Positions 390-60,918 of a stretch of 64,000 nucleotides of DNA are shown piece after piece. The position numbers and the translations under genes are program-made. Location of the stretch: assembly GCF_058153355.1 (NCBI RefSeq), contig NZ_CM177019.1; one strand, 5' to 3'. The notes below the pieces were generated by a model. That model saw only the letters and a list, made by a program, of their open reading frames with translations, was not told the DNA's origin and did not search any database. Each line of letters starts with the position of its first letter. Position 1 is the first letter of the stretch.

Positions 390-470
390 GTAAAAATTAT
401 ATTTCAGGACAAGAAGTTATGCTCGGGTCAAGCTAATGAATTGCTTAACGCAAGGAATAAAAACGTATTG

Positions 471-1952
471 ATGAACACTGGGAATTTCGAGTCGATACAA
501 ATCATGATCGACGCGCAAGAGTGGCGTAGCCTGCCGCTGCATCTGCGTCTGTATCACGCTTTTCGCCAATTGGTGATTTCCGGCGCATTGTCTGATGGCG
601 CAAAACTGCCTTCCGCTCGCGCACTGGCCCAGCAACTTGGTCTTTCCAGAGATACCATCGAAAATGCCTATTCCCAGCTCCACCGCGACGGTTTTATGGC
701 TCGCAGGCAGGGGGCCGGGAGTTTCGCCAGCCGCCAGGGGATACCGCATATTCAGGGCCAGCATGCGCAACCACCCTCGCCCGGACAAGTACCGGCTTTA
801 AGCGCTCGCTGGCAGCCAATTGCCGATCGCGCAGTCTCTTTCGATGCCCGCCAGATGCAGACCTTTACGCTTGGCCTGCCGGAAACGCGAAACTTCCCGC
901 TAAACATTTGGCAGAACTTTTCCCGCCAGATCCAACGTGAGCAGGCACATACGCTGATGTTAAATAGCGATCCGCAGGGCGAGCCACAGCTGCGCCAGCA
1001 AATTGCGCATTACCTTAATTTTGAACGCGGCGCGAAGGTAGATGCCGGGCAGATTGTGATTGTCAGCGGCGCACGGCAGGCGTTCTGGCTGTGCGGGCAA
1101 CTGCTGGCAGAGGCCGGACAGTCGGTGGCGATGGAAAATCCGGGCTATCCCGGCGCGCGTCAGGCGTTTTCTGCCGCACAGCTTAATCTTCTTCCCGTTG
1201 AAGTGGATGACGCCGGGATCCGGGTGGATAAACTGCCGCCCGCGCCGCTGGTTTACGTCACGCCCTCGCACCAGTTTCCTTCCGGTCATTTGCTCACGCT
1301 GGCGCGGCGTCATGCCCTGATTGCCTGGGCGCAGGCGCACAATGCGTGGATTATCGAAGACGACTACGACAGCGAATTTCACTACACCAGCGCGCCCGTC
1401 GCCTGTCTGCAAGGGTTAGACTGCGAGCAACGCACCCTGTATGTCGGCACTTTCAGCAAAACGCTCTATCCCGGCCTGCGCATCGGTTATCTGGTGGTGC
1501 CGACGTCGCTGGCTGCGCACTTTGCCGCCGCGCGTAATTTGCTTGATGGCGCAACGCCTGCGTTATCCCAACTAACGCTGGCGCGATTTATCGAGTCCGG
1601 TCATTTTGCCGCCCATATTCGCAACATGCGTAGTATGTATGCGGTGCGACAGGGGTGCCTGGCAGAGGCTATTCATCAGCACTTAAGTGAATGGGTCACG
1701 CCAGTGGTGACATCCGGTGGATTGCAAATGCCCTGCTGGCTGCATGGAGGTATTGATGAGCAACAGACGCTGAATGCCGCGCGCCGCGCCGGGTTAAACA
1801 TCGCCGGAATGCGCCAGTTCTGGCTGACGCACCCCGCGCACGCGGGCTGGCTGCTGGGATTCGCCGCCTTTACCCCCTACGAGATTGAACAGGGCGTCAA
1901 GCGTCTGCGGGCTGCATTATGCACTGAAAACGTGCGCCCAGCCGGGTCATAA
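471..1952 (+). CDS. MocR/GntR-family transcriptional regulator (N-terminal wHTH fused to a PLP aminotransferase-like domain)
   Basis: ORF-track 441..1952 begins at TTG. ATG at 471 sits about 13 nt after AGGAA. N-terminal HTH-like segment (LYHAFRQLVISGAL...LPSARALAQQLGLSRDTIENAY) followed by about 400 aa with aminotransferase-like features (SFSKTLYPGLRIGY). Visibly GC-rich. Confidence 0.75.
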   Translation: MNTGNFESIQIMIDAQEWRSLPLHLRLYHAFRQLVISGALSDGAKLPSARALAQQLGLSRDTIENAYSQLHRDGFMARRQGAGSFASRQGIPHIQGQHAQPPSPGQVPALSARWQPIADRAVSFDARQMQTFTLGLPETRNFPLNIWQNFSRQIQREQAHTLMLNSDPQGEPQLRQQIAHYLNFERGAKVDAGQIVIVSGARQAFWLCGQLLAEAGQSVAMENPGYPGARQAFSAAQLNLLPVEVDDAGIRVDKLPPAPLVYVTPSHQFPSGHLLTLARRHALIAWAQAHNAWIIEDDYDSEFHYTSAPVACLQGLDCEQRTLYVGTFSKTLYPGLRIGYLVVPTSLAAHFAAARNLLDGATPALSQLTLARFIESGHFAAHIRNMRSMYAVRQGCLAEAIHQHLSEWVTPVVTSGGLQMPCWLHGGIDEQQTLNAARRAGLNIAGMRQFWLTHPAHAGWLLGFAAFTPYEIEQGVKRLRAALCTENVRPAGS

Positions 1953-1956
1953 TCTC

Positions 1957-3003
1957 CTACGGGATGGTGTTGCAGGCAGCGGCAACCTGTTCCAGCGTCT
2001 GGCCTGCGCCAATAAATTCCACCTTATCGCCCGCTGTCGGCGTGACGGAGCTGGCATCGACCATAAAGCTGTCCATACAAACCCGCCCCAATACCGGTAA
2101 CCGCACGCCGCGCCAGCATACGCCCGCCGGAGGACGCATATTTCGCGGAACGCCATCCGCGTAACCCGCGGATATCGTAGCGATACGCAGCGGACGCGTG
2201 GCGGTAATCGTGCTGCCGTAGCCAACTGGCGTTCCCGCCGGGACATCCTGCACGCGCAGAATAGTTAGCGTCAGCGTAAAAGCCGGTTTTAGCGGCCTGG
2301 AAAACCACGGCTGGGCGACGCCAAACAGCGCAATCCCCGGACGGCAGAGATCTTCCCGCCAACCTGGTTGCAAAAACATTCCGCAGGAGTTCGCCAGCGA
2401 AAATCGGCTGCTGGGGAAAACCGTTTTTGCCTGCTGGAATAGCGCGTGTTGCGCCATATTTAACGCATGATCCGGCCTGTCGGCGTTCGCCAGATGGCTG
2501 ATGATATAGTCCGGCGCAGGCCAGTTACGCTCACGAAAAATCGCCGCCAGACGCATCAGTTGTTGCGGCATCATGCCCAGCCGCGACATACCAGAATCGA
2601 GCTGAATCATCACCGCGCTCCGTTGCTGGCGCGTTTCCAGTAACGTAAGCCACGCCATCACCTGGTCTACGGAATTGAGCAATGGCGTGATCTGCTGCGC
2701 GTAACAATACGCCATCGCCTCCGGCATAACCCCATTAAGCACTACCACCATCGCATCAGTGGGCAGGATTTTACGCAACGCCACGCCTTCAGAAAGCTGT
2801 GCGACAAAAAAGATCCGGCAGTTCGCCGCATACAGGGCGGGCGCAATCGCCTCCGCCCCCAGACCATAGGCATTGGCTTTCAACACCGCGCCACATTGCG
2901 CAGGGGCAGCATGGCGGGCCAGCATACGATAATTGTCGACGATGGCGGCGCGATTAACGCACATAACACCGCACGCCGCCTGGATTTCAGTAGAAGTCAT
3001 CAT
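1957..3003 (-). CDS. alanine racemase-family PLP enzyme (Alr paralog)
   Basis: 348-aa ORF with the AVLKANAYGLG PLP-lysine motif and overall colinearity with E. coli Alr. Start ATG overlaps the stop of the upstream SHMT-like gene (TAATG). GC-rich. Confidence 0.75.
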   Translation of the reverse strand: MMTSTEIQAACGVMCVNRAAIVDNYRMLARHAAPAQCGAVLKANAYGLGAEAIAPALYAANCRIFFVAQLSEGVALRKILPTDAMVVVLNGVMPEAMAYCYAQQITPLLNSVDQVMAWLTLLETRQQRSAVMIQLDSGMSRLGMMPQQLMRLAAIFRERNWPAPDYIISHLANADRPDHALNMAQHALFQQAKTVFPSSRFSLANSCGMFLQPGWREDLCRPGIALFGVAQPWFSRPLKPAFTLTLTILRVQDVPAGTPVGYGSTITATRPLRIATISAGYADGVPRNMRPPAGVCWRGVRLPVLGRVCMDSFMVDASSVTPTAGDKVEFIGAGQTLEQVAAACNTIP

Positions 3004-4238
3004 TAATAAGGCAACGGGTAGCGGTTGGTTAGTTGTATTACTTTTTGCTCAATATCGGCGCAAATGTCTGCAATATCTGATGAATTAATGGCGAAAATAA
3101 TTTCACTTATCCAGTCGGCAATCAGCGCAAAGTCATCCGCCTTCATCCCACGCGTGGTGCAGGCCGCGCTGCCAATACGAACGCCGGAGGTAATCAACGG
3201 CGGCTGCGGATCGCCCGGCAGGGTGTTTTTATTGACCGTGATCCCCGCCAGTTCGAGAAAGTACTCCACCTGTGCGCCGGTTAACCCCTGCGGGCGCAGG
3301 TCGATAATCCCCAGATGGCAGTCGGTGCCGTCCGTTAACAGCGTCAGGCCGCGCAGCGCCAGTTGCTGGCACATCGCCTGCGCATTGTCGATAACCTGCC
3401 CGGCATAACGTTTAAATTCCGGTTGTAATGCCTCGCCAAGCGCCACCGCTTTCGCTGCGATAACGTGCATCAACGGCCCGCCCTGCAAACCGGGAAAAAT
3501 GGCACTGTCGATTTTTTTCGCAAGCCTGGCGTCGTTGGTGAGGATCATGCCGCCGCGCGGCCCGCGCAATGTTTTATGCGTGGTGGTGGTGACCACATCA
3601 GCATACGCCAGCGGCGAAGGGAAACAGCCGCCCGCCACCAGCCCGGCAAAGTGCGCCATATCCACCAGCAAAATGGCGTCAACGGCATCGGCAATGCGGC
3701 GAAAACGGGCAAAATCATAGTGACGTGGATAAGCCGATCCTCCGGCAATAATCAACCGCGGGCGCTCACGCAGCGCGATCATCTCGACCTGATCCATATC
3801 AATCAAACCACTGTGCGCATCGACGCCATAGTGAAAAGCGTTAAACCATTTGCCGGATTGATTGACCGGCGAACCGTGCGTGAGATGCCCGCCGCATTGC
3901 AGGCTCATGCCAAGAATTTTGTCGCCGGGTTTCAGCAACGCCAGATGGACCGCCTGATTCGCCTGGCTGCCGGAGTGAGGCTGCACATTGACGTAACGCG
4001 CGCCAAAGAGCTGCTGCGCGCGGGTTATCGCCAGCATCTCAACCTCATCAATAAACTTACAGCCGCCGTAATAGCGATGCTGGTAATAACCTTCGGCGTA
4101 TTTATTGGTTAACACCGACCCCTGCGCCGCGAGAACGGCGGGGCTTACGAAATTCTCCGAGGCAATCAGTTCCAGCGACTGCTGCTGGCGCTGTTGCTCC
4201 TGGTTAATCAATGCAAAAAGTGGATCGTTATTTATCAT
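3003..4238 (-). CDS. serine hydroxymethyltransferase paralog (GlyA-like)
   Basis: Strong colinear similarity to GlyA ([57 protein letters not shown]). Start placed at MINNDPLF (ATG 4238), preceded by a GGGGGAAG RBS-like run; the ORF-track start at 4304 is an upstream extension. Confidence 0.85.
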
Positions 4239-4513
4239 GCGCTTCCCCCGCAAATTCATCATGCGATGATTTTCGCAGGGAAAACCTCGTCCGCACCCTG
4301 CCACTTTTTTGGGCAGGTGCAGACCACCTGTATGTCGTATTACTTAAAAGAAGAGAACATCGCTGACAATACCGGTATTAACTCCGAAATGAAGAGGGAA
4401 GAAGGCTCCGGCCATCTCCATGTGCGATTCTGGCTAGTAAAACATCATATTCCAGCTGCTCTTATCCGCCTACGTTATTGCATATACGGATAAGGCAGCC
4501 TCAATACGTACTT

Positions 4514-6067
4514 TTACTTGATATCTTTCACGCGCATACCGTTGATCTGTTCATCCGTGATGGTGTTACCCGCTTTAAAGTAATCAACCACCGCGTGATA
4601 AACGTAATAACCGCCCGTCGTATTGCGCGCTTTACCCTCGGTAAACGCGGTAAAACCATCTCCACCATCAGCAAGGAAACTCTGAGTGGCAATGTGGTAA
4701 ACCGTCGCATCTTCAATCGGTTTGCCATTCAAAGTCAGTGAGATAACCCGCTGACCAACCGGCTTGCTGCTGTCGTACTTCATTTCCAGGCCTTTCGATA
4801 CCTGTAAAACGCCATTACTTAAACTTGCGCCGTGTTCCATCAAACTGCGTAATTGTTTACCCGTGAGTTCCATCGTCACCAGTTCGTTGGGGAACGGGAA
4901 GGTACTGATGACGCCACCCATCGTAATTGCACCCGCCGGGATCTCATTGCGGATACCGCCAGAGTTGGTTAACGCCAACTGGGTATTTTTACCCGCCGCT
5001 GCCAGTAAAGCATCTGCCGCCAGGTTCCCGAGAGAAGCCGATTCACCATAGGCACGTTTTAGTTCAACCGGCGATTGCGCCACCGTTTGCTGCACGACTT
5101 CATCCAGCTTTTTATTCCAACTATCAATCACCTGTTTTGTTTGCGGATCGGGCTTCCACTCGTCGGCGTAAAGGGTTTTAAGCTCGAAGTTTTTCACCGT
5201 AAAAGTGTGCGGCTTCTCTTTGTAGTCCAGTACCAGTTTACCCACATCAATCCCACCGCTGTCAGTGGAGAGGATGAGCGTATTGCCGACTTTAATCGGT
5301 TCCGGCGTACCCACATGTGCATGCCCGGTGATCAAAATATCCAGCCCTTTCACCTGACTTGCCGTCTGAATATCTTTATCCAGTGCGCGGCGCACATCTG
5401 TGCCCCCCATACTGGACTGGCGGGCCGGAACACCTTCGTGAATCAGCGCAACGGTCAAATCAACCTTGCCTTTGAGTTCATCGATATAACGTTGTAGCCA
5501 TTTAATTTCATCACGCGCCTCAATACCCACTCGCGTTGCCGCAGATACCGTATCATTAAAGGCAAATACACCGTGCAAACCAATCACGCCAATTTTCACG
5601 CCGTCTTTTTCAATGATGGTATAGGGCTTATCCCAGAATGATTTACTGCTGTTCTGATAAAAAACATTACCCTGCACAATCGGGAATTTTGCCTGACTCA
5701 ACTGTAATAACGTATTGTCCCAGCCGTGATCAAATTCATGATTACCTATAGTGGCCGCATCGAACGGCATGGTATTCATAATATCGATAATCGCCTTGCC
5801 TTTAGTCAGGCTGCTGATATACGGCCCGGTAAAATAGTCACCCGCATCAAAAAACCAGGTCGCTTTGTTTTTAGCTTTTTCTTGTTTAACAAGCGTAGTG
5901 ATATTTGCCCAGCCGCCAATATCTCGTTTACCGTCAGCAATCCACGGCACTTTATAAGGCTCTACATGTGCATGGAGGTCGTTGGTATAAATGATGGTGA
6001 CATCTTTGGCGCAAGCCCAAAACGGCAGTGTTAATGCGATACCCGCAGCAAGCATTTTAATTTTCAT
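4514..6067 (-). CDS. secreted bifunctional metallophosphatase/5'-nucleotidase-family protein (UshA/CpdB-like), paralog 1
   Basis: N-terminal signal peptide ([20 protein letters not shown]). Metallophosphoesterase motifs NDLHAH, DAGDYF, GNHEFD, GHAH, followed by a 5'-nucleotidase C-terminal-like half. ATG 6067 follows GGAAGGGA; the ORF-track start 6073 is TTG. Confidence 0.85.
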
Positions 6068-6199
6068 AAACAATCCCTTCCAGTGAGATAAAGGATTGCT
6101 ACATTACGTTCTGAAAGGCTTTTTTATGTGAGAATACTCACATCCAGAGGCGATAACTGTAGGACAAAATCAACGACCTTATGAAATCGTTGGTGATAT

Positions 6200-7327
6200 A
6201 TGTCAAATCTGTTTGCGATTAATGTCTGTAAAACGTTCGGTTGTCGAAATTTGGGATTGGCCTCATCGGAAGATTACAGTTGGCCAGACTATAAACTGGG
6301 TTTTCCGGCACTGCACTGCCAGGCATGCGGAAGTTACCCCCCTTTGTTTGATGAACAACAATTTCGTGACTGGTTGTCAGTTCACATGACTGCGTGTGCC
6401 ATAGAAACAGGGCATTTTTGTCCATCATGCTATTGTAAAGAAAAGATTTTTTATGGCCACAACCCGCAGGGAACACAACGCGTTCAATGCCGTTCATGCA
6501 AAAAAGTCTGGACTCCGAAACAGCAGCCAGCAAGAGAAATTACGTATCCCCAGTCCATTGAAACCGTTCAACTGTTCATGCCCTTTCAAGGAGCCAGCGC
6601 AGTACAAAAGCTCTATGTTTTAGTCAGTCTTGACGCCACTCGTGGCAACATCCTTCATCTCTCCACGAATTATACGCAACATCAGACAGGAGACAGTCTG
6701 CGGTACAGTTACAGAGGCAATACAGAACCAACTGAGCACCATAGCGATATTGTGCAGAGGGTAGATATGCGTGAAGCGCAATTCTTGCGCCGGAGCCAGT
6801 TCGATGAAATTCAGTATGGCAGTGCTGTGCTCAAGCGCAACGGCAAGGGAGCCATACTACGCCCGGTTATCACGGCACACGGGCATTTCAGAATACTGAA
6901 AATCCGCTTTCCACATGTCAAAACGCATATCATTTCACACGAATGTTTTCTGAGAGGCGCAATTATTACAGCCTGGGCAGATCAGTTCCGCCAACAACAA
7001 GGCGAACTTTGGTTCGTAGAAGAAGAAATCAGCGACCGTAACGCTGATATTCCCTGGCATTTTCAGGGAACGACATACCATGGTTGGTGGCAAAATCAGT
7101 GGCAACGCTGGGGGCAGGGGAATAACAGCAAGATGGTCTGCCTGCTCACAGGAGTCTCCTTAGAAAGGGGCGCAAATGTTTCTCTGGCAACCAGTCGTTG
7201 CTTTATCACATGGCTGACAGACCAACACGACTTTACCCAAAGCGCGTTATTATCCGCAGGTCGCGTAACGAAAATGCTGACCTCACTGGCGTTAAAATAC
7301 AATGAATCGCTCAATCCATCTTGTTAG
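6200..7327 (+). CDS. hypothetical Cys-rich protein (zinc-ribbon-like N-terminus, W/Q-rich C-terminus)
   Basis: 375-aa ORF with CxxC pairs (CQACGS...CPSCYC...CRSCKK). No family I can assign with confidence. Flanked by AT-rich DNA and sits between nucleotidase paralogs. Confidence 0.5.
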   Translation: MSNLFAINVCKTFGCRNLGLASSEDYSWPDYKLGFPALHCQACGSYPPLFDEQQFRDWLSVHMTACAIETGHFCPSCYCKEKIFYGHNPQGTQRVQCRSCKKVWTPKQQPAREITYPQSIETVQLFMPFQGASAVQKLYVLVSLDATRGNILHLSTNYTQHQTGDSLRYSYRGNTEPTEHHSDIVQRVDMREAQFLRRSQFDEIQYGSAVLKRNGKGAILRPVITAHGHFRILKIRFPHVKTHIISHECFLRGAIITAWADQFRQQQGELWFVEEEISDRNADIPWHFQGTTYHGWWQNQWQRWGQGNNSKMVCLLTGVSLERGANVSLATSRCFITWLTDQHDFTQSALLSAGRVTKMLTSLALKYNESLNPSC

Positions 7328-7556
7328 TCAATACACTCGACAAACGACCATAAATTAATGGGATCACTATTTCTCATTTAATTAAATATATGAATGTATG
7401 ACTGAAAAATATAATCACAGTCAATGTTTAATTAATAACATTATTTGTTACTAAGATCACATAATACTTTCCTGACCTATGCTTACATAAAAATAAGACA
7501 CGGAGTTCCTTTTATTTAAATAATTCAACCAATGTAACAACCCCTATCAAGGAGGG

Positions 7557-9110
7557 ATGATGAGAACTGTATTTACGACTTTATCAGTCATATTCAGCGT
7601 GATGTTTTCTCACAGTATACTAGCTCAGGACGTTACTATTTATTATACGAATGATATTCACGCACATGTCAATCCGGCAAAAATTCCCGCTGTTGATAAG
7701 AACAGACTTGTAGGTGGTATGGCTAATATTGCAGGCATCGTTAATGAAGCGAAGAAAAAAAACAAAGATGTCTTTTTCTTTGATGCAGGCGACTATTTTA
7801 CCGGTCCGTATATCAGTACCCTGACCAAAGGTGAAGCTATTATTGATATCATGAACACCATGCCCTTTGATGCGGTATCCGTTGGTAATCACGAGTTCGA
7901 TCACGGCGTGCCCAATATGGTATCTCAGTTATCAAAAGCAAAATTCCCCATTCTGCTGGGAAATATTTACTACACCGATACAAATAAACCAGTTTGGGAT
8001 CATCCGTGGACCATTATCGAAAAAGATGGTTTAAAGATTGGTGTGATTGGATTGCATGGTGCATTCGCTTTCTATGATACAGTCGCGGCAAAAGCACGTG
8101 AAGGCGTAGAAGCCAGAGACGAAATTAAATATTTAAATAAAGCACTTGCAGAATTAAAAGGTAAAGTCGACATTACCGTTTTGCTAATTCACGAAGGTGT
8201 TCCGGCGCGTCAATCAAGCTTTGGTAGTAAAGATGTGGAGCGGCTACTACAGGCAGATATTGAGACAGCTAAAAAAGTGAATGGTGTTGATGTCTTAATT
8301 ACCGGTCACGCACATGTCGGAACACCGCAACCAATAAAAGTTAATAACACATTAATTGTATCTACCGATGCATACGGCACCGACATCGGAAAACTTGTGC
8401 TTGATTACAATCCGAAAACGAAGAAAATTGATAGTTATAATGGTGAGTTAATCACCATCTTCGCAGATCAATTTAAACCTGACACCATCGTTCAAAATAC
8501 TATCGATAAATGGAGTGCAAAGCTTAACAAAATAACACAGGAAGTTGTCGGCCATTCTCCCGTAGTTTTAACACGTGAGTATGGCAGTTCTTCTTCTACC
8601 GGTAACCTTATTCTTGATGCAATGATGGAAAAAACACCAGATGCCATTGCCGGATTTCAAAATAGCGGTGGGATGCGAGCTGATTTTCCTAAAGGTGATA
8701 TCACGCTGGGAGATGTTATTAGCACATTCCCCTTTAATAATGACCTCATCGAGATGGATTTGACGGGCCGCGATCTCAAATCGTTGATGACGCATGCAAC
8801 CAATCTAACTAACGGTGTGTTACAGGTTTCAAAAAGCGTTGCGGTTGTCTATGACAGCAAAAAACCACTGAACCAACGGTTAATCTCTTTCACCATTAAC
8901 GGCAAACCCGTGGAAGATAATCAAACATATCGTATTGTCACGCACTCCTTTTGTGCCAGTGGTGGTGACGGTTTTGAAGCATTTTTGAATGGAAAAAATG
9001 TGAAGACGATACCGGGAACAACCTCGGCGGAATCTATCATCGATTATTTCAAAAATCATAAACCTGTCACCCCAGACTTAACTAAACGAGTAATGGACGT
9101 CGCCAAATAA
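7557..9110 (+). CDS. secreted bifunctional metallophosphatase/5'-nucleotidase-family protein, paralog 2
   Basis: AAGGAGGG immediately upstream (ATG 7557 or 7560). Signal peptide, then NDIHAH, DAGDYF, GNHEFD, GHAH motifs; colinear with paralogs 1 and 3. Confidence 0.85.
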   Translation: MMRTVFTTLSVIFSVMFSHSILAQDVTIYYTNDIHAHVNPAKIPAVDKNRLVGGMANIAGIVNEAKKKNKDVFFFDAGDYFTGPYISTLTKGEAIIDIMNTMPFDAVSVGNHEFDHGVPNMVSQLSKAKFPILLGNIYYTDTNKPVWDHPWTIIEKDGLKIGVIGLHGAFAFYDTVAAKAREGVEARDEIKYLNKALAELKGKVDITVLLIHEGVPARQSSFGSKDVERLLQADIETAKKVNGVDVLITGHAHVGTPQPIKVNNTLIVSTDAYGTDIGKLVLDYNPKTKKIDSYNGELITIFADQFKPDTIVQNTIDKWSAKLNKITQEVVGHSPVVLTREYGSSSSTGNLILDAMMEKTPDAIAGFQNSGGMRADFPKGDITLGDVISTFPFNNDLIEMDLTGRDLKSLMTHATNLTNGVLQVSKSVAVVYDSKKPLNQRLISFTINGKPVEDNQTYRIVTHSFCASGGDGFEAFLNGKNVKTIPGTTSAESIIDYFKNHKPVTPDLTKRVMDVAK

Positions 9111-9150
9111 AATATCATTTATCAGTCTATTTATTTAACAAGGAATGCGA

Positions 9151-10770
9151 ATGAAAACAGTGCAGCGTACTTTACTTGCCGCAACATTGCTGACTATTTT
9201 TTCGGTCTCAGCCATGGCGCAGGATGTCACGATTATTTATACCAATGATCTTCACGCTCATGTGGATTCTTATAAAGTGCCGTATATCGCAGACGGAAAA
9301 CGCGACATTGGCGGCTTTGCCAATATATCTACTTTAGTAAAACAAGAGAAAGCGAAAAATAAAGCCACCTTTTATTTTGATGCTGGAGACTATTTCACCG
9401 GCCCTTATATCAGCAGTCTGACAAAGGGCGAAGCAATAATTGACATTATGAATACCATGCCTTTTGACGCAGTATCAATCGGTAATCATGAGTTTGACCA
9501 TGGCTGGGATAATGCCCTGCGACAATTAAGCAAAGCGAATTTTCCTGTTTTATTGGGCAATGTTTATCATAAAGAGAGTGAGAAACCCTTCTGGAACAAG
9601 CCCTACACCATCCTGGAAAAAGATGGCATCAAGATTGGTATTATTGGGCTACACGGCGTATTTGCATTTAATGATACGGTCTCGGAGCTCTCTCTCCAGG
9701 GACTCGATAATGACAATAATAACCGCTTTGATAAATCTTCCGAGACCCTTAAGAATCAGGGGATTGAAGCACGTGATGAAGTGAAGTATTTGCAGCATTA
9801 TATCGACGAGTTACGTGATAAGGTTGACCTCACTGTGGCGCTGGTTCATGAAGGCGTTCCGGCGCGTCAGTCCAGCATTGGCATTACAGATGTTAGACGC
9901 GCTCTTGATAAAGATATTCAAACCGCTAGCAAGGTGAAAGGATTGGATATTCTGATTACCGGGCATGCCCACGTCGGAACGCCAGAACCAATCAAAGTCG
10001 GCAACACCTTAATCCTTTCAACTGATAGTGGCGGTATCGATATTGGTAAATTAGTCCTTGATGTCAACCCTACAGCTCGTACCCATAAAATGAAGAGCTT
10101 TGAGCTGAAAACAGTTTATGCCGATGAATGGATACCCGATCCAACGACACAAAAAGTTATCAATGGCTGGAATAAAAAACTGGCGGATATTGTACGCCAA
10201 CCAGTGGGTGAATCATCGATTGCATTAACTCGCGCCTATGGTGAGTCATCGCAACTAGGCAACCTGTTTACCGATGCAATGCTTGTCGCTGCTCCGACTG
10301 CACAGATTGCATTGATAAACTCCGGCAGCTTACGTGCGGATATAAATGCAGGCACGATTACCTTTGGCGACATTACCAGTACATTCCCCTTCAAGAATGA
10401 ACTTACTGAAATGGATCTCAGCGGTAAGGATCTGCGTAACCTACTGGAACACGGGGCATCGCTTACCAATGGCATCCTGCAAATGTCAAAAGGCGCAGAA
10501 ATGCGCTATACCCCGCAGAAACCAGTAGGTCAGCGCATAGTATCTTTTAAAATTAATGGTGAAGAGATCGTTGATACGAATATTTACCATGTTGCAACAA
10601 CGACTTTCCTTGCACTGGGGGGCGATGGTTTTCTGGCATTCAAAGAAGGGAAAAATGTTCAGGTCCGCGCCGGAAAAAACATGTCCGATGTCGTGATCGA
10701 TTATTTGAAGAAAGGCCACAAGATTACGCCTGCACAGGTAAATGAAATGCGGGTGGACGTTAGCAAATAA
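9151..10770 (+). CDS. secreted bifunctional metallophosphatase/5'-nucleotidase-family protein, paralog 3
   Basis: ATG 9151 lies 7 nt after AAGGA (ORF-track start 9145). Very close to paralog 1 over most of its length but with an extra insert of about 25 aa (ELSLQGLDNDNNNRFDKSSETLKNQG). Followed by a hairpin terminator. Confidence 0.85.
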   Translation: MKTVQRTLLAATLLTIFSVSAMAQDVTIIYTNDLHAHVDSYKVPYIADGKRDIGGFANISTLVKQEKAKNKATFYFDAGDYFTGPYISSLTKGEAIIDIMNTMPFDAVSIGNHEFDHGWDNALRQLSKANFPVLLGNVYHKESEKPFWNKPYTILEKDGIKIGIIGLHGVFAFNDTVSELSLQGLDNDNNNRFDKSSETLKNQGIEARDEVKYLQHYIDELRDKVDLTVALVHEGVPARQSSIGITDVRRALDKDIQTASKVKGLDILITGHAHVGTPEPIKVGNTLILSTDSGGIDIGKLVLDVNPTARTHKMKSFELKTVYADEWIPDPTTQKVINGWNKKLADIVRQPVGESSIALTRAYGESSQLGNLFTDAMLVAAPTAQIALINSGSLRADINAGTITFGDITSTFPFKNELTEMDLSGKDLRNLLEHGASLTNGILQMSKGAEMRYTPQKPVGQRIVSFKINGEEIVDTNIYHVATTTFLALGGDGFLAFKEGKNVQVRAGKNMSDVVIDYLKKGHKITPAQVNEMRVDVSK

Positions 10771-10782
10771 TAAAAAAATTAT

Positions 10783-10816
10783 AATGCCATTCATTCACTG
10801 AATGGCATTATTTTCT
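10783..10816 (+). terminator. rho-independent terminator after nucleotidase paralog 3
   Basis: Palindrome AATGCCATTCA...TGAATGGCATT followed by a T-rich run. Confidence 0.6.
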
Positions 10817-10847
10817 CTAAATCAACAATAGATAATGAGATATATTT

Positions 10848-11708
10848 ATGTGTATAAAAAAGCACGGGATAGCTTTATCGATTCTATTAATACCTTGCAT
10901 TGGAAACGCTCAGGAAATTAAAAGTGAGGAAGGCTGGTTACATCAAAGCTTGAATGTCATTGGTCGCACAGACTCTCGCTTTGGCCCAAGGCTGACTAAC
11001 GACCTCTACCCTGAATATACTGTAGCAGGAAGAAAAGACTGGTTTGATTTTTATGGTTATGTTGATCTACCAAAATTCTTTGGCGTCGGCAGTCACTATG
11101 ATGTTGGGATCTGGGATGAGGGCTCACCACTATTTACGGAAATAGAACCTCGGTTTTCCATTGACAAATTGACCGGATTAAATCTTGCGTTCGGCCCTTT
11201 TAAAGAATGGTTCATTGCAAACAACTATGTCTATGATATGGGTGACAACCAGTCATCCCGGCAAAGTACATGGTATATGGGGCTTGGTACAGATATCGAC
11301 ACGGGTCTACCAATTAAGCTTTCTGCCAATATATACGCCAAGTATCAGTGGCAAAACTATGGTGCCGCTAATGAAAATGAATGGGACGGATATCGATTCA
11401 AAATAAAATATAGCATTCCTCTTACCCATTTATTCGGAGGGCGATTGGTATACAATAGTTTTACTAACTTTGATTTTGGATCCGATCTTGCGGACAAATC
11501 ACACAATAATAAACGAACCAGTAATGCTATTGCTTCAAGCCATATCCTTTCCCTGCTATATGAACACTGGAAATTTGCATTTACACTACGTTATTTTCAC
11601 AACGGTGGACAATGGAATGCTGGGGAGAAAGTTAACTTCGGAGATGGTCCATTTGAATTAAAAAACACAGGATGGGGAACCTATACTACTATTGGTTATC
11701 AATTTTAA
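10848..11708 (+). CDS. Tsx-family nucleoside-specific outer-membrane channel (Tsx paralog)
   Basis: 286-aa ORF with signal peptide and long colinear identity to E. coli Tsx ([70 protein letters not shown], terminal F). Confidence 0.85.
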
Positions 11709-11885
11709 ATCAGGTGATGTTTTAGATATTTTTACTTAATGCCATTTTGTAATTGTCATAAATAACTTCACCATTCACACTGTGAATTCATCGCTCAACA
11801 CAAAAGCCCCCTTATTACCGGGGCACTGACCAAAGGCAAAATGACAATCAATCACCACCTCCGCAGGAGGTGGTTTAGAGGTGAC

Positions 11886-11913
11886 AACAAAAGCTGGCAA
11901 CTGCCAGCTTTTG
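11886..11913. terminator. palindromic hairpin downstream of metL (likely bidirectional terminator)
   Basis: ACAAAAGCTGGCAACTGCCAGCTTTTGT palindrome just past the metL stop. A second palindrome (ACCACCTCCGCAGGAGGTGGT) lies at 11854-11874. Confidence 0.55.
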
Positions 11914-11924
11914 TTCAATAATCA

Positions 11925-14357
11925 CTACAACAACTGCGCCAGACGGTTAATATCCGACTGAATCGCCCCGGCGGTGACGTCGCGCCCTGCGCCTGGCCCA
12001 CGGATCACCAGCGGGTTGTCGCGATACCAGCGGCTTTCGATGGCAAAGACGTTATCGCACGGTAGTAGTGATGCCAGCGGATGGTCTTCTCGCACCGCTT
12101 CCACGCCTACTCGCGCTTTGCCGTTAGCATCGAAACGCGCCACGTAGCGCAACACCAGCCCCATTTCACGGGCCGCTTCCAACCGTTGTACCATCTGCTC
12201 ATTAAGTTCATCGCCATTTTCAAAGAAATGGTCGATGCTGCCACCTTCGCAATGGGTTGGCACCAGTGATTCAACACGCACCTGGTCCGGTTCAATGTTG
12301 TAACCCGCTTCACGCGCCAGAATCACCAGCTTGCGCATCACATCTTTGCCGGAGAGGTCATCACGCGGGTCAGGTTCAGTTAAGCCCTGCTGCCACGCCT
12401 GATCCACCAGCTCAGTAAACGGCACGCTACCGTCGAATTGCAGGAACAGCCAGGAGAGCGTGCCGGAGAAGATCCCGCTGATCGACAAAATAGTGTCGCC
12501 GCTGTCGATCAGATCGCGCACGGTATGGTTGATCGGCAAACCTGCGCCGACGGTGGCGTTGTATAGCCAGTGACGCCCGGTTTTTTCGAACGCGTCGTGG
12601 ATCTGTCGATATTTATTGCTGTCGCTGGCTCCCGCCAGTTTGTTGGCACTGATGACGTGGAAACCGTGGCTGGCGAAATCGAGATACTGATCAGCAAGCT
12701 GCTGGCTGGCAGTAACGTCCAGCACCACTAAATCATCATACGGATGGGCACGCATCCACAGGAACAGCGACTCTTCATCCTGTTCGACGGCTTCATCATT
12801 AAAGAAGGCTAGCGCACGGCTGGCGTCCAGCCCGTCATAGCTCAACAGGCTGCGACGGCTGTCCACCACGCCTGCCAGCACAAATTCAAAGCCGGTGCGC
12901 GCCGAGAGCGTGCTCTGCTCACGGGCGAACAGTTCCAGCCAGCGGGAACCGATATTGCCCTTACCGAACAATACCAGGCCGATGCGTTTTTCTGCGCGGA
13001 AGACGGACTGATGCAGCCCCTGAATCAGGCTTTCGGTCGGCCCGGTGCGCAGTACTGCCACCAGGCTGATGCCGTCATCGGACTGCCAGGTAAACTCGAC
13101 CGGCTGGCCTTTCAGTTGCTGCCAGAAGCGGTGGCAATGCAGCGGGTTACGGGTGACGCCCGCCCCAACCATCGCCACCAGCGCCAGCCCCTGACGCAGG
13201 CGCAGTTCGCCGGGTAATCCTGCTTCGTCGAGGATTTTCAGCGCACTGTCGGCCACTTCCGAGGTGTAGCAAAATTGCAGCAACTGGCGATCGTTATGCA
13301 CGCCAACTGCCAGTGGGCGCACCTGAGCACGTTTCAGGATTTGGTCGATCTCTTTATGCGCCAGTTTAAAATCCTGACTGGCGGGCACCTGAAACTCAAT
13401 CAAACAGACATCATCGTGGCTGGTGACAATACGCGCGCCAGTACCTGAGGCCAGCACGCGTTCAATACGCGTAGATCCTTGATCCGGTGTATAGCTACAG
13501 CGCAGCTGCAGGTCGATTTCGCTGCCAGAAACTGGCTGTAAAGTACGCGCGTGCAACACTGGCGCGGCAAGACGCGCCAGTTCACTGGCTTCATCAAGAC
13601 GCAGCAATGGCAGCAGACAGGCATCTTTCACTTTACGCGGGTCGGCACTATATACCCCGGCGACATCGCTCCAGATGGTTACGCGGGAAACCCCCGCCAG
13701 CGCACCGATTTGTGTCGCGGAATAGTCGGAACCGTTACGCCCCAGCAGCACCGTTTCACCGGCGTTGTTACGGCTGATAAACCCGGTCACCACCAGACGT
13801 TTGCCCGGATGTTGTACCAGTAGCTGTTGCAGCAACGGGTAAGAAAGCCCTTCATCAACCTGCGGCTGCGCGGCGCGTTCAGCGCGTAAAAACTCGCGGG
13901 CATCAAGCCAGGCCGCTGGCAGCCCTTGTTGATTAAGTACCGCAGACATCAGGCGCGCCGACCACACTTCACCGTGGCCCACCACTTCCGCATACACCGC
14001 ATCGTTAATACCGCTGTCGAGCAGCGCCGCCAGGCGTTCCAGATCGCTGACAAAAGCGCTAATGAGGCTATCGGCTTCTTCAGCGGGTAGCAGGCCGCTA
14101 ATCAGATCGCACTGATAGCGACGCAGCGTTTGTTGAACCTGATGCGCAGAGAGACGATCGGTCTGGCTTAGTTTCAACCAGTTAATCAACTGGTTAGTGG
14201 TGCTACCGGCGGCGGAAACCACCATCATATCGTCAGGCTGAGAGTACTCCGCCATAATGCCCGCGACACGCAAATAACACTTCACATCAGCCAGACTACT
14301 GCCACCAAATTTATGCAGTTGACGACCTTTCGCCCCTGCCTGCGCAATCACACTCAT
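11925..14357 (-). CDS. metL: bifunctional aspartokinase II / homoserine dehydrogenase II
   Basis: 810-aa ORF matching MetL in length and sequence. Two-nt gap to metB, as in the metBL operon. Confidence 0.95.
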   Translation of the reverse strand: MSVIAQAGAKGRQLHKFGGSSLADVKCYLRVAGIMAEYSQPDDMMVVSAAGSTTNQLINWLKLSQTDRLSAHQVQQTLRRYQCDLISGLLPAEEADSLISAFVSDLERLAALLDSGINDAVYAEVVGHGEVWSARLMSAVLNQQGLPAAWLDAREFLRAERAAQPQVDEGLSYPLLQQLLVQHPGKRLVVTGFISRNNAGETVLLGRNGSDYSATQIGALAGVSRVTIWSDVAGVYSADPRKVKDACLLPLLRLDEASELARLAAPVLHARTLQPVSGSEIDLQLRCSYTPDQGSTRIERVLASGTGARIVTSHDDVCLIEFQVPASQDFKLAHKEIDQILKRAQVRPLAVGVHNDRQLLQFCYTSEVADSALKILDEAGLPGELRLRQGLALVAMVGAGVTRNPLHCHRFWQQLKGQPVEFTWQSDDGISLVAVLRTGPTESLIQGLHQSVFRAEKRIGLVLFGKGNIGSRWLELFAREQSTLSARTGFEFVLAGVVDSRRSLLSYDGLDASRALAFFNDEAVEQDEESLFLWMRAHPYDDLVVLDVTASQQLADQYLDFASHGFHVISANKLAGASDSNKYRQIHDAFEKTGRHWLYNATVGAGLPINHTVRDLIDSGDTILSISGIFSGTLSWLFLQFDGSVPFTELVDQAWQQGLTEPDPRDDLSGKDVMRKLVILAREAGYNIEPDQVRVESLVPTHCEGGSIDHFFENGDELNEQMVQRLEAAREMGLVLRYVARFDANGKARVGVEAVREDHPLASLLPCDNVFAIESRWYRDNPLVIRGPGAGRDVTAGAIQSDINRLAQLL

Positions 14358-24725: not shown

Positions 24726-25211
24726 ATGAAATACGATACTTCCGAGCTTTGTGACATCTATCAAGAAGATGTTAACGTCGTGGAACCGCTGTTCTCCAAT
24801 TTTGGCGGACGGGCGTCGTTTGGCGGACAAATAATCACGGTAAAATGTTTCGAGGACAACGGGTTGCTGTACGATCTGCTCGAACAGAATGGCCGTGGTC
24901 GTGTTCTCGTCGTTGATGGCGGTGGTTCTGTTCGTCGCGCACTGGTCGATGCTGAGCTGGCGCGTCTGGCAGTACAAAATGAATGGGAAGGCCTGGTCAT
25001 TTACGGCGCGGTGCGTCAGGTAGATGACCTGGAAGAGCTGGATATCGGCATCCAGGCGATGGCAGCAATTCCAGTCGGTGCCGCTGGCGAAGGCATTGGC
25101 GAAAGCGATGTCCGCGTTAATTTTGGCGGCGTCACCTTCTTCTCCGGTGACCATCTTTATGCCGACAATACCGGAATTATTCTTTCAGAAGATCCGCTGG
25201 ATATTGAATAA
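24726..25211 (+). CDS. rraA: ribonuclease E inhibitor RraA
   Basis: 161-aa [32 protein letters not shown]. Confidence 0.93.
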
Positions 25212-25227
25212 GTACCTGCCATGCGTT

Positions 25228-25256
25228 AAAAGGGGAATTAAATTCCCCTTTTTTAT
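25228..25256 (+). terminator. rho-independent terminator after rraA
   Basis: AAAGGGGAATT-AAATTCCCCTTTTTTAT hairpin plus T-run. Confidence 0.8.
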
Positions 25257-25469
25257 ATGCAAAATATTCATAAAGACTATCGTTTGTTTTTATTTAATTC
25301 ATTTTAAATATCAATAGTTCACATCTGACAATATAAATTAATTATCGATAAATCATTTCATAAAAATATGCAGCATTAAAAATTAATGCTATATGGTAAA
25401 TTAACTATTCTGGGAATAGGGATATGAATCATCGTTAGTAGCGAACGTATTATATAATAAGGGACTGAT

Positions 25470-26186
25470 ATGAGATACGTTATCTTATTAATACTATGGA
25501 TAATAACTACTTTTCTTAGTCATCTTCAGCACAGCAACCTACTGTCTGGAGATCCTGGCATGGTTGGCGAGTATATCGGTTCAGTATTTCTGGGGCCGTT
25601 GTTACTTCCCGTGCTTGTGTCAGGTATTCTGTGCGCATTTATTAAAAAAAAACGTAACTTCGCCAGTTTTACTCGCGGGTGCTGTTGGGTATTGGGAATC
25701 CTGCTTTTATCCAAAGTCGGCAATACGTTTCGTATGTTTACCCCGTGGCAATATACCTTTGAGAATGCTGCGATAACCGTGACTATCCCGAACCGACACT
25801 GGAATACGGTTTCCATCAGTACTAATAAAACCATTGATATAAGAAGTGAGGATAATAGCGTCTTCATTTCTGCTTTCCGCCTGCCCGCAGGACGTAGCGC
25901 CGATGACCCGCTGGAAGCGTTAAAGAAGAAGCAGCGAGACAATCTCAAGGATCAATACAATGAGGAAGCCTTCCAGTTTCATGATTGTAATGCCAAACAT
26001 TTCACCTGTAAGTATCAGGATGTGTTGATAAATTTTGATGGTCAGCAGAAAAGAACCATCAGTGTTTATCTTGAAGACACCCCCAGGGCTGTGGGGATCA
26101 TTGCATTAATGGCGCCAGATACGGCAGATAAATATCGCCAACAGGCGATGGAGATTATGCTTTCCGCTAAAAATGCAGTGAAGTAA
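25470..26186 (+). CDS. hypothetical membrane protein in an AT-rich insertion
   Basis: 238-aa ORF with ATG 6-7 nt after AGGGA. Two to three N-terminal hydrophobic helices, then a soluble domain of about 150 aa. No family recognised. Upstream 250 bp is strongly AT-rich. Confidence 0.55.
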   Translation: MRYVILLILWIITTFLSHLQHSNLLSGDPGMVGEYIGSVFLGPLLLPVLVSGILCAFIKKKRNFASFTRGCCWVLGILLLSKVGNTFRMFTPWQYTFENAAITVTIPNRHWNTVSISTNKTIDIRSEDNSVFISAFRLPAGRSADDPLEALKKKQRDNLKDQYNEEAFQFHDCNAKHFTCKYQDVLINFDGQQKRTISVYLEDTPRAVGIIALMAPDTADKYRQQAMEIMLSAKNAVK

Positions 26187-51629: not shown

Positions 51630-53024
51630 TCAGAAGAAGTATTTAAAGCGAACGCGTGCGCCGTAACGGTCATCAGTATCATCACCGTGTTTTTTATCAC
51701 CGTCGCTATCCAGAATGGAGTAATAAGTACCAAGGTAAATATTAAAGTTCTCCATATCCATCACATTAGCGAACTGATAAGACGCATGAATGGTGTGAAT
51801 GGTGTACGTCCCTTCATCATCAATCCAGCAGTCGTTATCACAAACTACACCGCTGAATTCATCAATCTTATTGTGCGCGTAGATATAACCCAGCTCGAAA
51901 CGTTTCCACAGCGCGTTAATCCCGGCAGTGAAATCTTTTTCATTATTAGCATCTAAATAGGCGGTATTAAGATTAACCACGACGCCATTTTCCGGATCCG
52001 TTTTCAGGCCATTCCAGGTCATGCTCATACCATAGCCGGTACGATCGGACTGATCGACAAAATTACCCTTGCTATCGGTATAACCATAAGCATTATTTAC
52101 TACGTTCGCTTCCATCGCTGCGGAAACGGTGAATTCTTCCGTCGGCGACCAGGCAATTACCGGACGCAGATAAGCAACATTTTTCTGCTGCTTCATATCG
52201 CGTCCATGATAATTACCGTCATTATATAAAGATGTTCCGTCTTCAAGTAACGTGTTTAATTCAAAATACCAGTTATCGAGTTGTTTGCTGACGAGGAAAT
52301 TACCGCCAGCGTTAGAGCGCCCGCGGCCCTCTTTCATCATATAGATATAACCGCTGCCATCGTCATAAAGATCGTTCGCAGTATTACCGGAATGTTCAAC
52401 AAAGGTATCCTGATTCAGCGGGAACATATCGTAGGCTTCAAAACGGCCTACTTTGACCTTCCAGTCGTTTTCTTTGCCAAAGAAGAATACCGCATCATCG
52501 ATATTTACTGAACCGTGCATATCCCCCAGCGGTTGTGCGGAGAACCCGGCGAAATAACCATTATCCAGTTTTCGCATACCATCAAAACCTAACAGAATAC
52601 GACCATTGAGATTCCACTGTTCATTAGTGGGATCGCTATTCACATCAGCGTTGGTCATTGCCAGCAGGCCATGATTACTTTCCGCATCCATATTAAATTC
52701 TACGTCGCCGTAGATTTTTAAATCGCCATAACCTGAAAGCAAAAGATTAGGTGAGGTGGCATTTTTCTTTGCAGATTCCGCCGTTGTCTGTCCATTTACC
52801 GGCGTATTGCCCTGGGCAGCCTTAATTTCGCGGATCTCAGCGGCTTGTTGTGTCTGCAGCTGTTTTACCTGCCCCTCTGCTTTTGCTGCCCGCATTTCTG
52901 CCGCTTCCAGGCGTTCTTCCAGCAATGCCATGCGTTGTTCCAGCGTTAAATGCTGTGTTTTTGCCATTCCGGTACTACATGCCAATAATAAACCGATGGC
53001 TAAAGATAATGTCGATTTTTTCAT
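51630..53024 (-). CDS. putative outer-membrane carbohydrate-selective porin (OprB/ScrY-like: N-terminal coiled coil plus beta-barrel)
   Basis: 464-aa ORF with signal peptide MKKSTLSLAIGLLLACSTGMA, about 50 aa of coiled coil (LEQRMALLEERLEAAEMRAAKAEGQVKQLQ), an aromatic/Gly-rich alternating region and C-terminal ...RFKYFF typical of OM beta-barrels. Family assignment is inferred. Confidence 0.6.
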   Translation of the reverse strand: MKKSTLSLAIGLLLACSTGMAKTQHLTLEQRMALLEERLEAAEMRAAKAEGQVKQLQTQQAAEIREIKAAQGNTPVNGQTTAESAKKNATSPNLLLSGYGDLKIYGDVEFNMDAESNHGLLAMTNADVNSDPTNEQWNLNGRILLGFDGMRKLDNGYFAGFSAQPLGDMHGSVNIDDAVFFFGKENDWKVKVGRFEAYDMFPLNQDTFVEHSGNTANDLYDDGSGYIYMMKEGRGRSNAGGNFLVSKQLDNWYFELNTLLEDGTSLYNDGNYHGRDMKQQKNVAYLRPVIAWSPTEEFTVSAAMEANVVNNAYGYTDSKGNFVDQSDRTGYGMSMTWNGLKTDPENGVVVNLNTAYLDANNEKDFTAGINALWKRFELGYIYAHNKIDEFSGVVCDNDCWIDDEGTYTIHTIHASYQFANVMDMENFNIYLGTYYSILDSDGDKKHGDDTDDRYGARVRFKYFF

Positions 53025-53500
53025 TATTTACGTTCCCTGAAATAAAAGATACCCTACGCTTTCCAAAAGGAATACGTATATAGAGAAATATAAGGTGTGC
53101 ACTTTCGAATTTTTAATCCAACTTCAGCAGGCCGATGGATAGTATCCCGCTGCATAATATGAGTAAATCCGCTGATTTCCTGGAACGTGAGGAATATAAC
53201 AATAGTGCCGTTTTTAACTAAATATCGTAAAAAATATTAGATATAATTCACGCTGACTCATAAGCCACAAATATAAATAACCTTGCTGCAAAATATGTGC
53301 GGCAGTTAAACATTCACAACATCATTAAATAATGATTTTTTATTCACTGCATTTATTTTTCCCATCAATATGTGCCTTACACCGCAAAATTTATCCTTCA
53401 CTCTGCCTTATATTGTCACGACTTCACGACATATCCGCGCTCATCACAAAACCGCCCCGCCGTTACAATTAACTATAATATTTTTTCATGGAGTCCAATA

Positions 53501-53947
53501 ATGGCAGCACTTACTGCAAGCTGTATTGACCTGAATATTCAGGGCAATGGCACTTATTCCGTTCTGAAGCAGTTAGCGACAATGGCGTTACAAAACGGTT
53601 TTATCACCGACTCACATCAATTCCTGCAAACCCTGCTGGTGCGCGAAAAAATGCACTCCACCGGTTTTGGTTCTGGTGTCGCCGTGCCGCACGGTAAAAG
53701 CGCCTGTGTTAAACAACCGTTCGTATTATTCGCTCGCAAAGCGCAGGCCATTGACTGGAAAGCCAGCGATGGCGAAGACGTCAATTGCTGGATCTGCCTC
53801 GGCGTGCCGCAAAGTGGCGAAGAGGATCAGGTCAAAATCATCGGCACACTGTGTCGCAAAATTATCCACCAGGATTTTATCAACCAACTGCGACAAGGCG
53901 ACGCCGTCCAGGTGCTTGCTTTGTTAAATCAAACCCTCAGCTCATAA
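53501..53947 (+). CDS. frvA: PTS fructose-like EIIA component
   Basis: Native start MAALTASCIDLNIQGNGTYSVLKQ, 148 aa; ORF-track start 53372 is extended upstream. Confidence 0.92.
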   Translation: MAALTASCIDLNIQGNGTYSVLKQLATMALQNGFITDSHQFLQTLLVREKMHSTGFGSGVAVPHGKSACVKQPFVLFARKAQAIDWKASDGEDVNCWICLGVPQSGEEDQVKIIGTLCRKIIHQDFINQLRQGDAVQVLALLNQTLSS

Positions 53948-53957
53948 GGAAGTGGCG

Positions 53958-60766: not shown

Positions 60767-60918
60767 TTAATTGCCTTATAAATATATAGATAAGAGAGTA
60801 AACATAATAAAGGAAAAAAGAAAATGCCACTACACGCGTTTTGTTTATAAATAAAACGATAAAATTCACGAAATGAATAAGTCCTGCAATTTAATATATA
60901 TCGCAGGACTTATTTTAA

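Follow-up and report, generated by a model that had tools for sequence, protein, structure and literature searches.

What might a second Tsx-type channel contribute to genomes that already encode the canonical one? The question is raised by a 64,000-nucleotide stretch of contig NZ_CM177019.1 (NCBI RefSeq assembly GCF_058153355.1; hereafter the window, i.e. the whole stretch that was analysed), in which a Tsx-like gene, here called tsx2, closes a block of genes (nt1, hyp, nt2, nt3 and tsx2; Table 1) situated between metF and metL. We consider it probable, at roughly 0.6, that tsx2 encodes an accessory and probably CRP-controlled nucleoside channel, which would form a scavenging module with co-expressed periplasmic nucleotidases, and whose surface differs from that of Tsx at mapped phage-receptor positions. 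The gene is already on record, as RefSeq names it Tsx in hundreds of genomes and the same locus (GR31, metL..metF) has been listed for avian pathogenic Escherichia coli (APEC) BEN2908 and for all the extraintestinal pathogenic (ExPEC) and adherent-invasive (AIEC) E. coli model strains compared there, among them RS218, UTI89, LF82 and NRG857c (PMC12928451, 2026). The GR31 authors described an 861-bp open reading frame (ORF) 67.3% identical to Tsx P0A261 and three UshA-domain ORFs (~27-28% identical to Bacillus subtilis YfkN), and suggested, on the basis of annotation, a coordinated nucleoside processing and transport system (PMC12928451). What the present work adds, all of it computational, is the placement of tsx2 as a deep paralog, the combination of conserved permeation residues with altered T6 residues, the recurrence of the module in two architectures and the conservation of CRP-type sites.

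We confirm that tsx2 is an intact member of the Tsx family, the latter being delimited here by Pfam PF03502 and NCBIfam NF011686/PRK15106. The Pfam domain Channel_Tsx matches residues 30-286 (E 5.6e-70), the NCBIfam profile 'nucleoside-specific channel-forming protein Tsx' aligns over its positions 6-289 of 289 with 491.8 bits (curated cut-off 311), and the crystallised E. coli Tsx chain (PDB 1TLW/1TLY/1TLZ) is colinear over residues 29-286 (E 1.4e-114). Structure modelling predicts the 12-stranded beta-barrel fold known from 1TLY/1TLW: the AlphaFold (AF2) model, built on an alignment of 77 sequences, has 12 strands and a mean predicted local distance difference test score (pLDDT) of 89.1 (it replaced a single-sequence model with a pLDDT of 31), and superimposes on 1TLW_A with a root-mean-square deviation of 0.9 Å (Foldseek; template-modelling score, TM, 0.94; E 4e-34). 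By eye, the sequence reads as a signal peptide over residues 1-21, with predicted cleavage between ...GNA and QE, and the C-terminus is ...GYQF, with a terminal F; the start codon and the signal peptide are conserved in E. coli Nissle 1917 and in Citrobacter enshiensis. A lipoprotein reading of the motif 'LLIPC' was rejected, the -1 residue being a Pro and the Cys being a Phe in C. enshiensis. The original prediction, a second Tsx-like nucleoside channel and possible receptor variant, would have been undone by a loss of barrel-forming residues, and the strand count, the fit to 1TLW, the C-terminus and the signature of selection given below speak against such a loss.

Nor is tsx2 the only tsx of its carriers, the other finding that could have overturned that prediction, since the canonical gene lies elsewhere in the same genomes. 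Among 5426 complete E. coli genomes, megablast recovered tsx2 in 660 (101 with at least 99% identity to the window, 559 with 95-99%), always on the chromosome, in single copy and between metF and metL; 658 have it at full length, as counted by at least 80% query coverage and not by reading frame. The canonical tsx (~70% nucleotide identity) was detected by sensitive blastn in 5423 of the 5426, the places with a tsx-type gene exceeded the genomes by 661, and the tsx2 carriers listed have two such places each. In strain SMS-3-5 the canonical tsx (WP_001295328.1, the same accession as in the K-12-derived strain) is found at yajD and tsx2 between metF and metL. An ortholog of tsx would be expected at the yajD-tsx-yajI locus and within the orthologous clade, and tsx2 is found in neither; it is a paralog and not a displaced ortholog. 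The window allele falls in the SMS-3-5 group (identity of 99% or more), and ~97.7% of its nucleotides match the B2 allele. The SMS-3-5 copy (L001 12001-12861) carries a RefSeq pseudogene flag ('missing C-terminus'), yet its reading frame is uninterrupted, lies one synonymous base from the window and encodes an identical protein; the flag is thus a likely annotation artefact, and the pseudogene reading was discarded.

The metF-metL locus exists in three states in E. coli, holding nothing (K-12, O157-type), nt1 with a divergent hyp (sequence type ST131) or the full set (Nissle 1917, SMS-3-5 and others), and it is not until the metL stop (window 11926) that homology with genomes of the K-12 type sets in again. 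The short ST131 form, which is without nt2-nt3-tsx2, is not a simple recent deletion of the full one, given that in the ST131 strain JJ1886 (L043 1505-4321) hyp is ~73% identical to the window hyp and overlaps with its 3' end the 3' end of metL by 37 bp. Two further accessory Tsx lineages, an Enterobacter-type paralog and one designated P0004 (between sprT and galP), were not found in the complete E. coli genomes.

Sequence comparison marks tsx2 as an old lineage and not as a recent duplicate. By neighbour joining, the window protein groups with the B2 allele and the C. enshiensis protein in a long-branch clade outside the Enterobacterales Tsx orthologs, with the accessory lineages P0004 and P0077/P0087 as nearest neighbours of tsx2. 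The orthologs are 72-89% identical to K-12 Tsx, compared with 65% for tsx2 in the same comparison (63-69% to all Enterobacterales orthologs), and the C. enshiensis protein is 85% identical to tsx2 over its full length and 88% over the mature core. Comparison with the Nissle (B2) allele gave a ratio of nonsynonymous to synonymous divergence (dN/dS) of 0.108, and comparison with C. enshiensis (dS 1.6) one of 0.049, from which we conclude that tsx2 is under purifying selection. Of the description 'island-borne paralog' in the original prediction, the paralog stands, though as an ancient one, whereas the 'island' is devoid of mobility genes: there is no integrase or transposase in the block with tsx2, the last gene of a run from nt1 onwards with 40-48% G+C, as against 55-58% in metL and metB. 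Within E. coli, the two tsx2 alleles are alike in their loops, and their differences are confined to the signal peptide, the N-terminus and the surroundings of turn T4. Along the block (4514-11708), dS between the window and Nissle 1917 (L042) is 0.34 for nt1, 0.23 for hyp, 0.15 for nt3, 0.10 for nt2 and 0.08 for tsx2, and dN/dS of hyp is raised (0.25); this unevenness suggests a mosaic, recombinant history. The P0004 gene (L004 10001-10849, GCA_002979035.1; 130 members), a third accessory Tsx lineage, is 68% identical to tsx2 and is a solitary gene located between sprT/endA and galP, without a nucleotidase in the vicinity.

The original prediction had tied the channel to the adjacent nucleotidases, and this link turned out stronger than adjacency alone would make it. 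In C. enshiensis all five genes are present, likewise between metF and metL, and Enterobacter hormaechei has, elsewhere in its chromosome, a rearranged cluster (hyp, then ntA-ntB-Tsx) with a divergent Tsx, a form shared with Citrobacter. The E. hormaechei proteins are 67% (hyp), 91% (ntA to nt1), 72% (ntB to nt2) and 59% (Tsx) identical to those of the window, so that Tsx is the fastest-diverging component of the module between genera. A search with a hyp alignment, in one genome per species, returned 33 loci, all in Enterobacteriaceae, in 31 of which an nt1-type gene is divergent from hyp (of the other two, L017 ends at the contig end and L039 has an nt3-type gene instead). In four of these loci, from Enterobacter, Citrobacter and Escherichia (L016, L019, L037 and L041), a Tsx gene lies inside the operon, 23-41 bp from nt3 (23 bp in L016), three of which also carry nt2, and a further locus (L035) has nt1-tsx and stops just past tsx. 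From these loci, together with C. enshiensis and E. hormaechei, we draw the conclusion that the association of a Tsx-type channel with this nucleotidase family has persisted in two gene orders. Some genomes have two nt1/hyp copies, one short and one extended by nt2, a Tsx paralog and nt3, namely E. coli SCPM-O-B-8794 (L019, L013), Escherichia sp. MOD1-EC7003 (L012, L037) and Citrobacter sp. wls619 (L027, L041); in L019, nt2 is tandemly duplicated.

If tsx2 has been retained as a nucleoside channel, the residues needed for permeation should be preserved, and the comparison with K-12 Tsx (tsx of the K-12-derived genome; K-12 residues in mature numbering) is consistent with this. Mutations of F27, G28, S217, G239 and G240 are reported to render K-12 Tsx transport-defective or albicidin-resistant (PMC6499177; PMC8245764 Table S2). 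All five residues are identical in tsx2, and across 77 members of the Tsx family no variation is seen at F45, G253 or G254, while conservation reaches at least 90% at G46 and S231. Overall identity to K-12 Tsx is 61% for the whole and 63% for the mature protein, with only three indels (2 amino acids in the mature N-terminus, 1 in loop L2 and 5 in loop L5). With the topology derived from the model strands, under the rule that both termini are periplasmic, F27, G28 and R32 fall in L1, residues 198-207 in L5 and 249/254 in L6, in agreement with published surface exposure. Identity is 68% in the strands, 73% in the periplasmic turns and 55% in the extracellular loops, and ~17-18% in the signal peptide and mature N-terminus; loops L2, L3, L5 and L6 are ~50% identical, L4 and strand S6 100%, and strands S1, S2, S11 and S12 only 36-58%. 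The expectation of a protein colinear with Tsx through the barrel and different in the N-terminus and several loops was thus borne out, as was the mapping of differences onto extracellular loops by alignment with the chromosomal Tsx, which had been proposed as a check.

The differences extend to positions that matter for phages. The reported T6 receptor determinants of K-12 Tsx are segment 198-207, N249 and N254 (PMC6499177), and R32P confers resistance to T6, U115 and albicidin, while T6-resistant Tsx point mutants remain colicin K sensitive (PMC8245764). In tsx2, the segment DSGNAINGIK has become KSHN-----N (a 5-amino-acid deletion plus substitutions), N254 is replaced by P and R32 by T, and N249 is kept. 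The T6 receptor determinants are hence not preserved as a set, which fits the receptor-variant idea put forward earlier, and since L5 and L6 differ in the mapped T6 receptor area, we would not expect tsx2 to be recognised alike by Tsx-specific phages. One could go further and argue that the selective value of tsx2 lies mainly in its surface identity, as a Tsx stand-in that is insensitive, or differently sensitive, to phages, colicins or contact-dependent inhibition (CDI), the nucleotidase linkage being incidental. Such an interpretation would account for the loops being the least conserved part of the barrel, for the three altered receptor sites (198-207, N254 and R32) and for the rapid divergence of Tsx between genera. 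Nevertheless, we hold it to be very unlikely, because the two E. coli alleles lack loop differences, which together with the low dN/dS offers no hint that the surface is still under diversifying selection, and because carriers keep the canonical tsx and so stay exposed to Tsx-specific phages.

A different alternative places the change inside the channel. The tsx2 clade deviates at 15 mature positions that are at least 90% conserved in the remaining Tsx proteins, and these replacements (among them W13L, S22R, E40T, H228K and Y229F) cluster on the neighbouring strands S1, S2 and S11. L37P and V232T are common to both P0004 and P0077/P0087, W177F and A233L to P0077/P0087 only, and S22R, E40T and H228K to P0004 only. 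They could reflect a specialised channel for another substrate class (nucleoside monophosphates, nicotinamide adenine dinucleotide or mononucleotide (NAD/NMN), dinucleotides or nucleotide sugars), to be processed by the linked nucleotidases in one linear uptake-and-hydrolysis pathway. The placement of the replacements on one barrel wall, their sharing among paralog lineages, the position of these paralogs outside the orthologous Tsx clade, and the tight and repeated linkage with one nucleotidase family in two gene orders would all agree with such a pathway. Against it stand the five residues known to be needed for nucleoside/albicidin passage, which are unchanged in tsx2, and the net charge, which for the mature core is -4 in E. 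coli tsx2, -8 in its C. enshiensis counterpart and -9 and -11 in the paralogs of Enterobacter/Citrobacter; these values fall inside the family spread (-7.1 +/- 2.8) and show no consistent shift that would favour anionic substrates. We regard this specialised channel as unlikely; lumen-facing residues of tsx2 were guessed from the alternation pattern only. The simpler idea of a more cationic channel for nucleotides was abandoned, as the net charge of tsx2 is no outlier and is not common to the other paralogs.

An extended version, which we judge to be quite unlikely, would see in the Tsx paralog, the UshA-like nucleotidases and the zinc-ribbon protein hyp a dedicated and previously undefined uptake-and-hydrolysis system of Enterobacteriaceae, in which the channel, by way of the S1/S2/S11 wall, would have shifted to a nucleotide-derived substrate that is phosphorylated or bulkier and is supplied by the host gut or inflamed tissue, and hyp, derived from a transposase, would act as regulator. 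Were this true, ExPEC and Nissle 1917 would possess a nutrient or signal-processing route of their own that K-12 is without.

Returning to tsx2 as an accessory nucleoside channel, the promoter regions of the module carry putative CRP binding sites. A search for the CRP core with at most one mismatch gave 6 matches in 64 kb (1.8 expected), two of them in the two intergenic regions of the module. The exact core between nt1 and hyp has its half-sites kept in Nissle and C. enshiensis, with a varying spacer sequence, and the E. hormaechei hyp/nt1 spacer has a one-mismatch version (TGTGA-N6-TCGCA). The CRP-like site upstream of nt2 has one mismatch and belongs to a 45-bp block in which E. coli and C. 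enshiensis hardly differ, the remaining spacer having diverged. Two one-mismatch CytR octamers (GTTGCATT-type) stand in tandem upstream of nt2 (7522-7538), ~70 bp downstream of the CRP-like site; they are not conserved in C. enshiensis, and we therefore claim no CytR operator. No Pho box was matched within 3 mismatches, and hence there is no evidence of PhoB control; no known RNA family (Rfam) was found in 4300-12100. The genes nt2-nt3-tsx2 are separated by 35 and 78 bp, and the second gap holds a hairpin whose predicted fold (-20.5 kcal/mol, z -5.5) was not equalled in stability by any of 200 shuffles. By eye, one C-G pair of this hairpin is replaced by a compensatory T-A in C. enshiensis, and two adjacent mismatches occur in Nissle; the hairpin is likely a partial terminator or an intercistronic RNA structure. 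The second exact TGTGA-N6-TCACA core of the window lies at 61705-61720.

On these grounds we envisage that tsx2 would be expressed from the end of an nt2-nt3-tsx2 unit, and that cAMP-CRP would govern this expression jointly with that of the three UshA-like 5'-nucleotidases of the periplasm. The protein would be exported via Sec, cut after GNA21 and inserted in the outer membrane as a 12-stranded barrel, whose narrow, binding-site-lined channel would let nucleosides and deoxynucleosides diffuse as through K-12 Tsx. The module would raise the scavenging of external nucleosides (via the channel) and of nucleotides (dephosphorylated in the periplasm), the nucleosides from both routes feeding inner-membrane nucleoside transporters, and tsx2 could sustain nucleoside uptake when the canonical tsx is lost or shut off.

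Several points weigh against this proposal. A passive channel and periplasmic nucleotidases are parallel routes and not consecutive steps, so that their linkage is no proof of a single pathway; the 15 clade-specific replacements imply that the specificity of tsx2 could differ from that of K-12 Tsx; the searchable literature yielded no expression, transport or phage data on tsx2; the hairpin upstream of tsx2 could terminate most transcripts; the ribosome-binding site, as read from the sequence, looks weak; and truncated alleles exist (P0003, with 137 members versus 1224 in the full-length cluster, ~10%, and P0113). The hairpin, the weak ribosome-binding site and the truncated alleles, along with the pseudogene flag in SMS-3-5 and the lack of nt2-nt3-tsx2 in ST131, would also suit a remnant that is silent or in decay and serves no function at present. 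Such a remnant seems to us highly improbable, however, in view of the intact SMS-3-5 ORF behind an artefactual flag, the 658 genomes that meet the coverage threshold for full length and a dN/dS of 0.05-0.11 maintained over a divergence of dS 1.6.

Set beside known systems, tsx2 shares with K-12 Tsx (PDB 1TLY/1TLW/1TLZ) the family, the predicted 12-strand fold and residues F27, G28, S217, G239, G240 and N249. It differs in its location (metF-metL instead of yajD-yajI), in its place within a nucleotidase operon (the K-12 tsx is monocistronic), in an L5 shorter by 5 amino acids, in N254P and R32T, in a signal peptide and N-terminus of its own and in the clade-specific replacements. With the Enterobacter/Citrobacter paralog (P0077/P0087; hyp/nt1-nt2-tsx(-nt3)), which is likewise of low G+C (0.41 in a 0.55 genome), it has in common the partners, the CRP-type site between hyp and nt1, and L37P, V232T, A233L and W177F; unlike that paralog, to which it is only 57-59% identical, it has another gene order and chromosomal site, and the L5 and L6 sequences are unrelated. 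K-12 itself combines the periplasmic nucleotidases UshA and CpdB with a nucleoside regulon controlled by CRP and CytR (tsx, nupC, nupG, deo, cdd, udp). The module resembles this arrangement in joining an outer-membrane channel to periplasmic hydrolysis, in its putative catabolite control (here at sequence level) and in feeding, as proposed, nucleoside uptake, and nt1-nt3 share with UshA/CpdB the metallophosphatase and 5'-nucleotidase C-terminal domain architecture. In contrast to the K-12 regulon, the genes of the module are physically clustered and accompanied by the zinc-ribbon protein hyp.

As an annotated paralog of a well-understood channel, tsx2 changes no concept. The canonical Tsx is used by CdiA toxins. 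It is also widely exploited as a receptor by T-even-type phages and colicin K, and it is the entry route for albicidin (PMC8245764, PMC6499177). Through a second Tsx whose surface is different, cells that lose tsx to phage pressure could go on taking up nucleosides, or other phages could be offered a different receptor, which bears on phage therapy and on probiotic strains: ~12% of complete E. coli genomes carry the module, including Nissle 1917 and SMS-3-5, and so do BEN2908 and all the ExPEC/AIEC model strains compared with it (PMC12928451). Moreover, the recurrent linkage with three nucleotidases (one of them crystallised) and a zinc-ribbon protein points to a candidate scavenging pathway that is genetically easy to study.

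Table 1. Features of the tsx2 block and its surroundings, with positions in the 64,000-nucleotide window.
Feature	Position	Strand	Description
MocR-type gene	441-1952	+	MocR-type regulator/aminotransferase, pyridoxal phosphate (PLP)-dependent
Racemase-like gene	1957-3003	-	Alanine-racemase-like gene
SHMT-like gene	3003-4304	-	Serine hydroxymethyltransferase (SHMT)-like gene
nt1	4514-6073	-	Predicted periplasmic metallophosphatase/5'-nucleotidase
CRP core	6127-6142		Exact TGTGA-N6-TCACA in the divergent nt1/hyp promoter region (pattern search)
hyp	6200-7327	+	375-amino-acid Cys-rich protein, named 'cytoplasmic protein' in sources; weak IS1 InsA-type zinc-ribbon signal
Footprint upstream of nt2	7421-7465		Conserved; palindrome AATGTT-N8-AACATT (7423-7442) adjoining the CRP-like site TGTTACTAAGATCACA (7446-7461)
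nt2	7557-9110	+	Predicted periplasmic metallophosphatase/5'-nucleotidase, 517 amino acids
nt3	9145-10770	+	Predicted periplasmic metallophosphatase/5'-nucleotidase, 541-amino-acid ORF; RefSeq homolog starts 6 nucleotides downstream
nt3-tsx2 hairpin	10781-10811	+	Perfect 13-bp stem, loop of 5, between nt3 stop and tsx2 start, followed by a T-rich tail, TTTTCTCT (terminator-like scan)
tsx2	10848-11708	+	Intact ORF, 286 amino acids plus stop; accessory Tsx-family outer-membrane channel (predicted)
Two stem-loops	11854-11915		Between tsx2 and the convergent metL; 11854-11874 and ~11890-11915 (read from sequence), then T-runs on both strands

Among the neighbours of tsx2, the three nucleotidases are paralogs of one another (54-66% identical; nt3 is 66% identical to nt1 and 54% to nt2), and all score far under the cut-offs of the named nucleotidase families (153-165 bits against 600 for the UshA equivalog). 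With 1112.8 bits over residues 20-518, the nt1 product is practically the same protein as that crystallised under PDB 3IVD/3IVE ('Nucleotidase'); the titles of these entries refer to c4898 of CFT073, with uridine and cytidine, and played no part in the assignment. The N-terminus of nt3, as read from the sequence, is signal-peptide-like. For the hyp product, neither a significant Pfam domain nor a relative in the PDB was found; it may have arisen from a transposase and act as regulator of the module. Anti-phage defence models (PADLOC) gave no match to hyp, tsx2 or nt2. The two stem-loops downstream of tsx2 are probably shared or bidirectional terminators.

On the metF side of the nucleotidase block, the window has an additional MocR/racemase/SHMT cluster (441-4304, G+C ~0.56-0.60), by which it differs from GR31. 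Strain 2013C-4282 has the same cluster, with the SHMT gene flagged for an internal stop, and SMS-3-5 and Nissle are without it. Further patches of low G+C (0.41-0.43 against a background of 0.50-0.56) occur at 25001-26000, 53001-54000 and 60001-61000 of the window, and may represent other accessory insertions.

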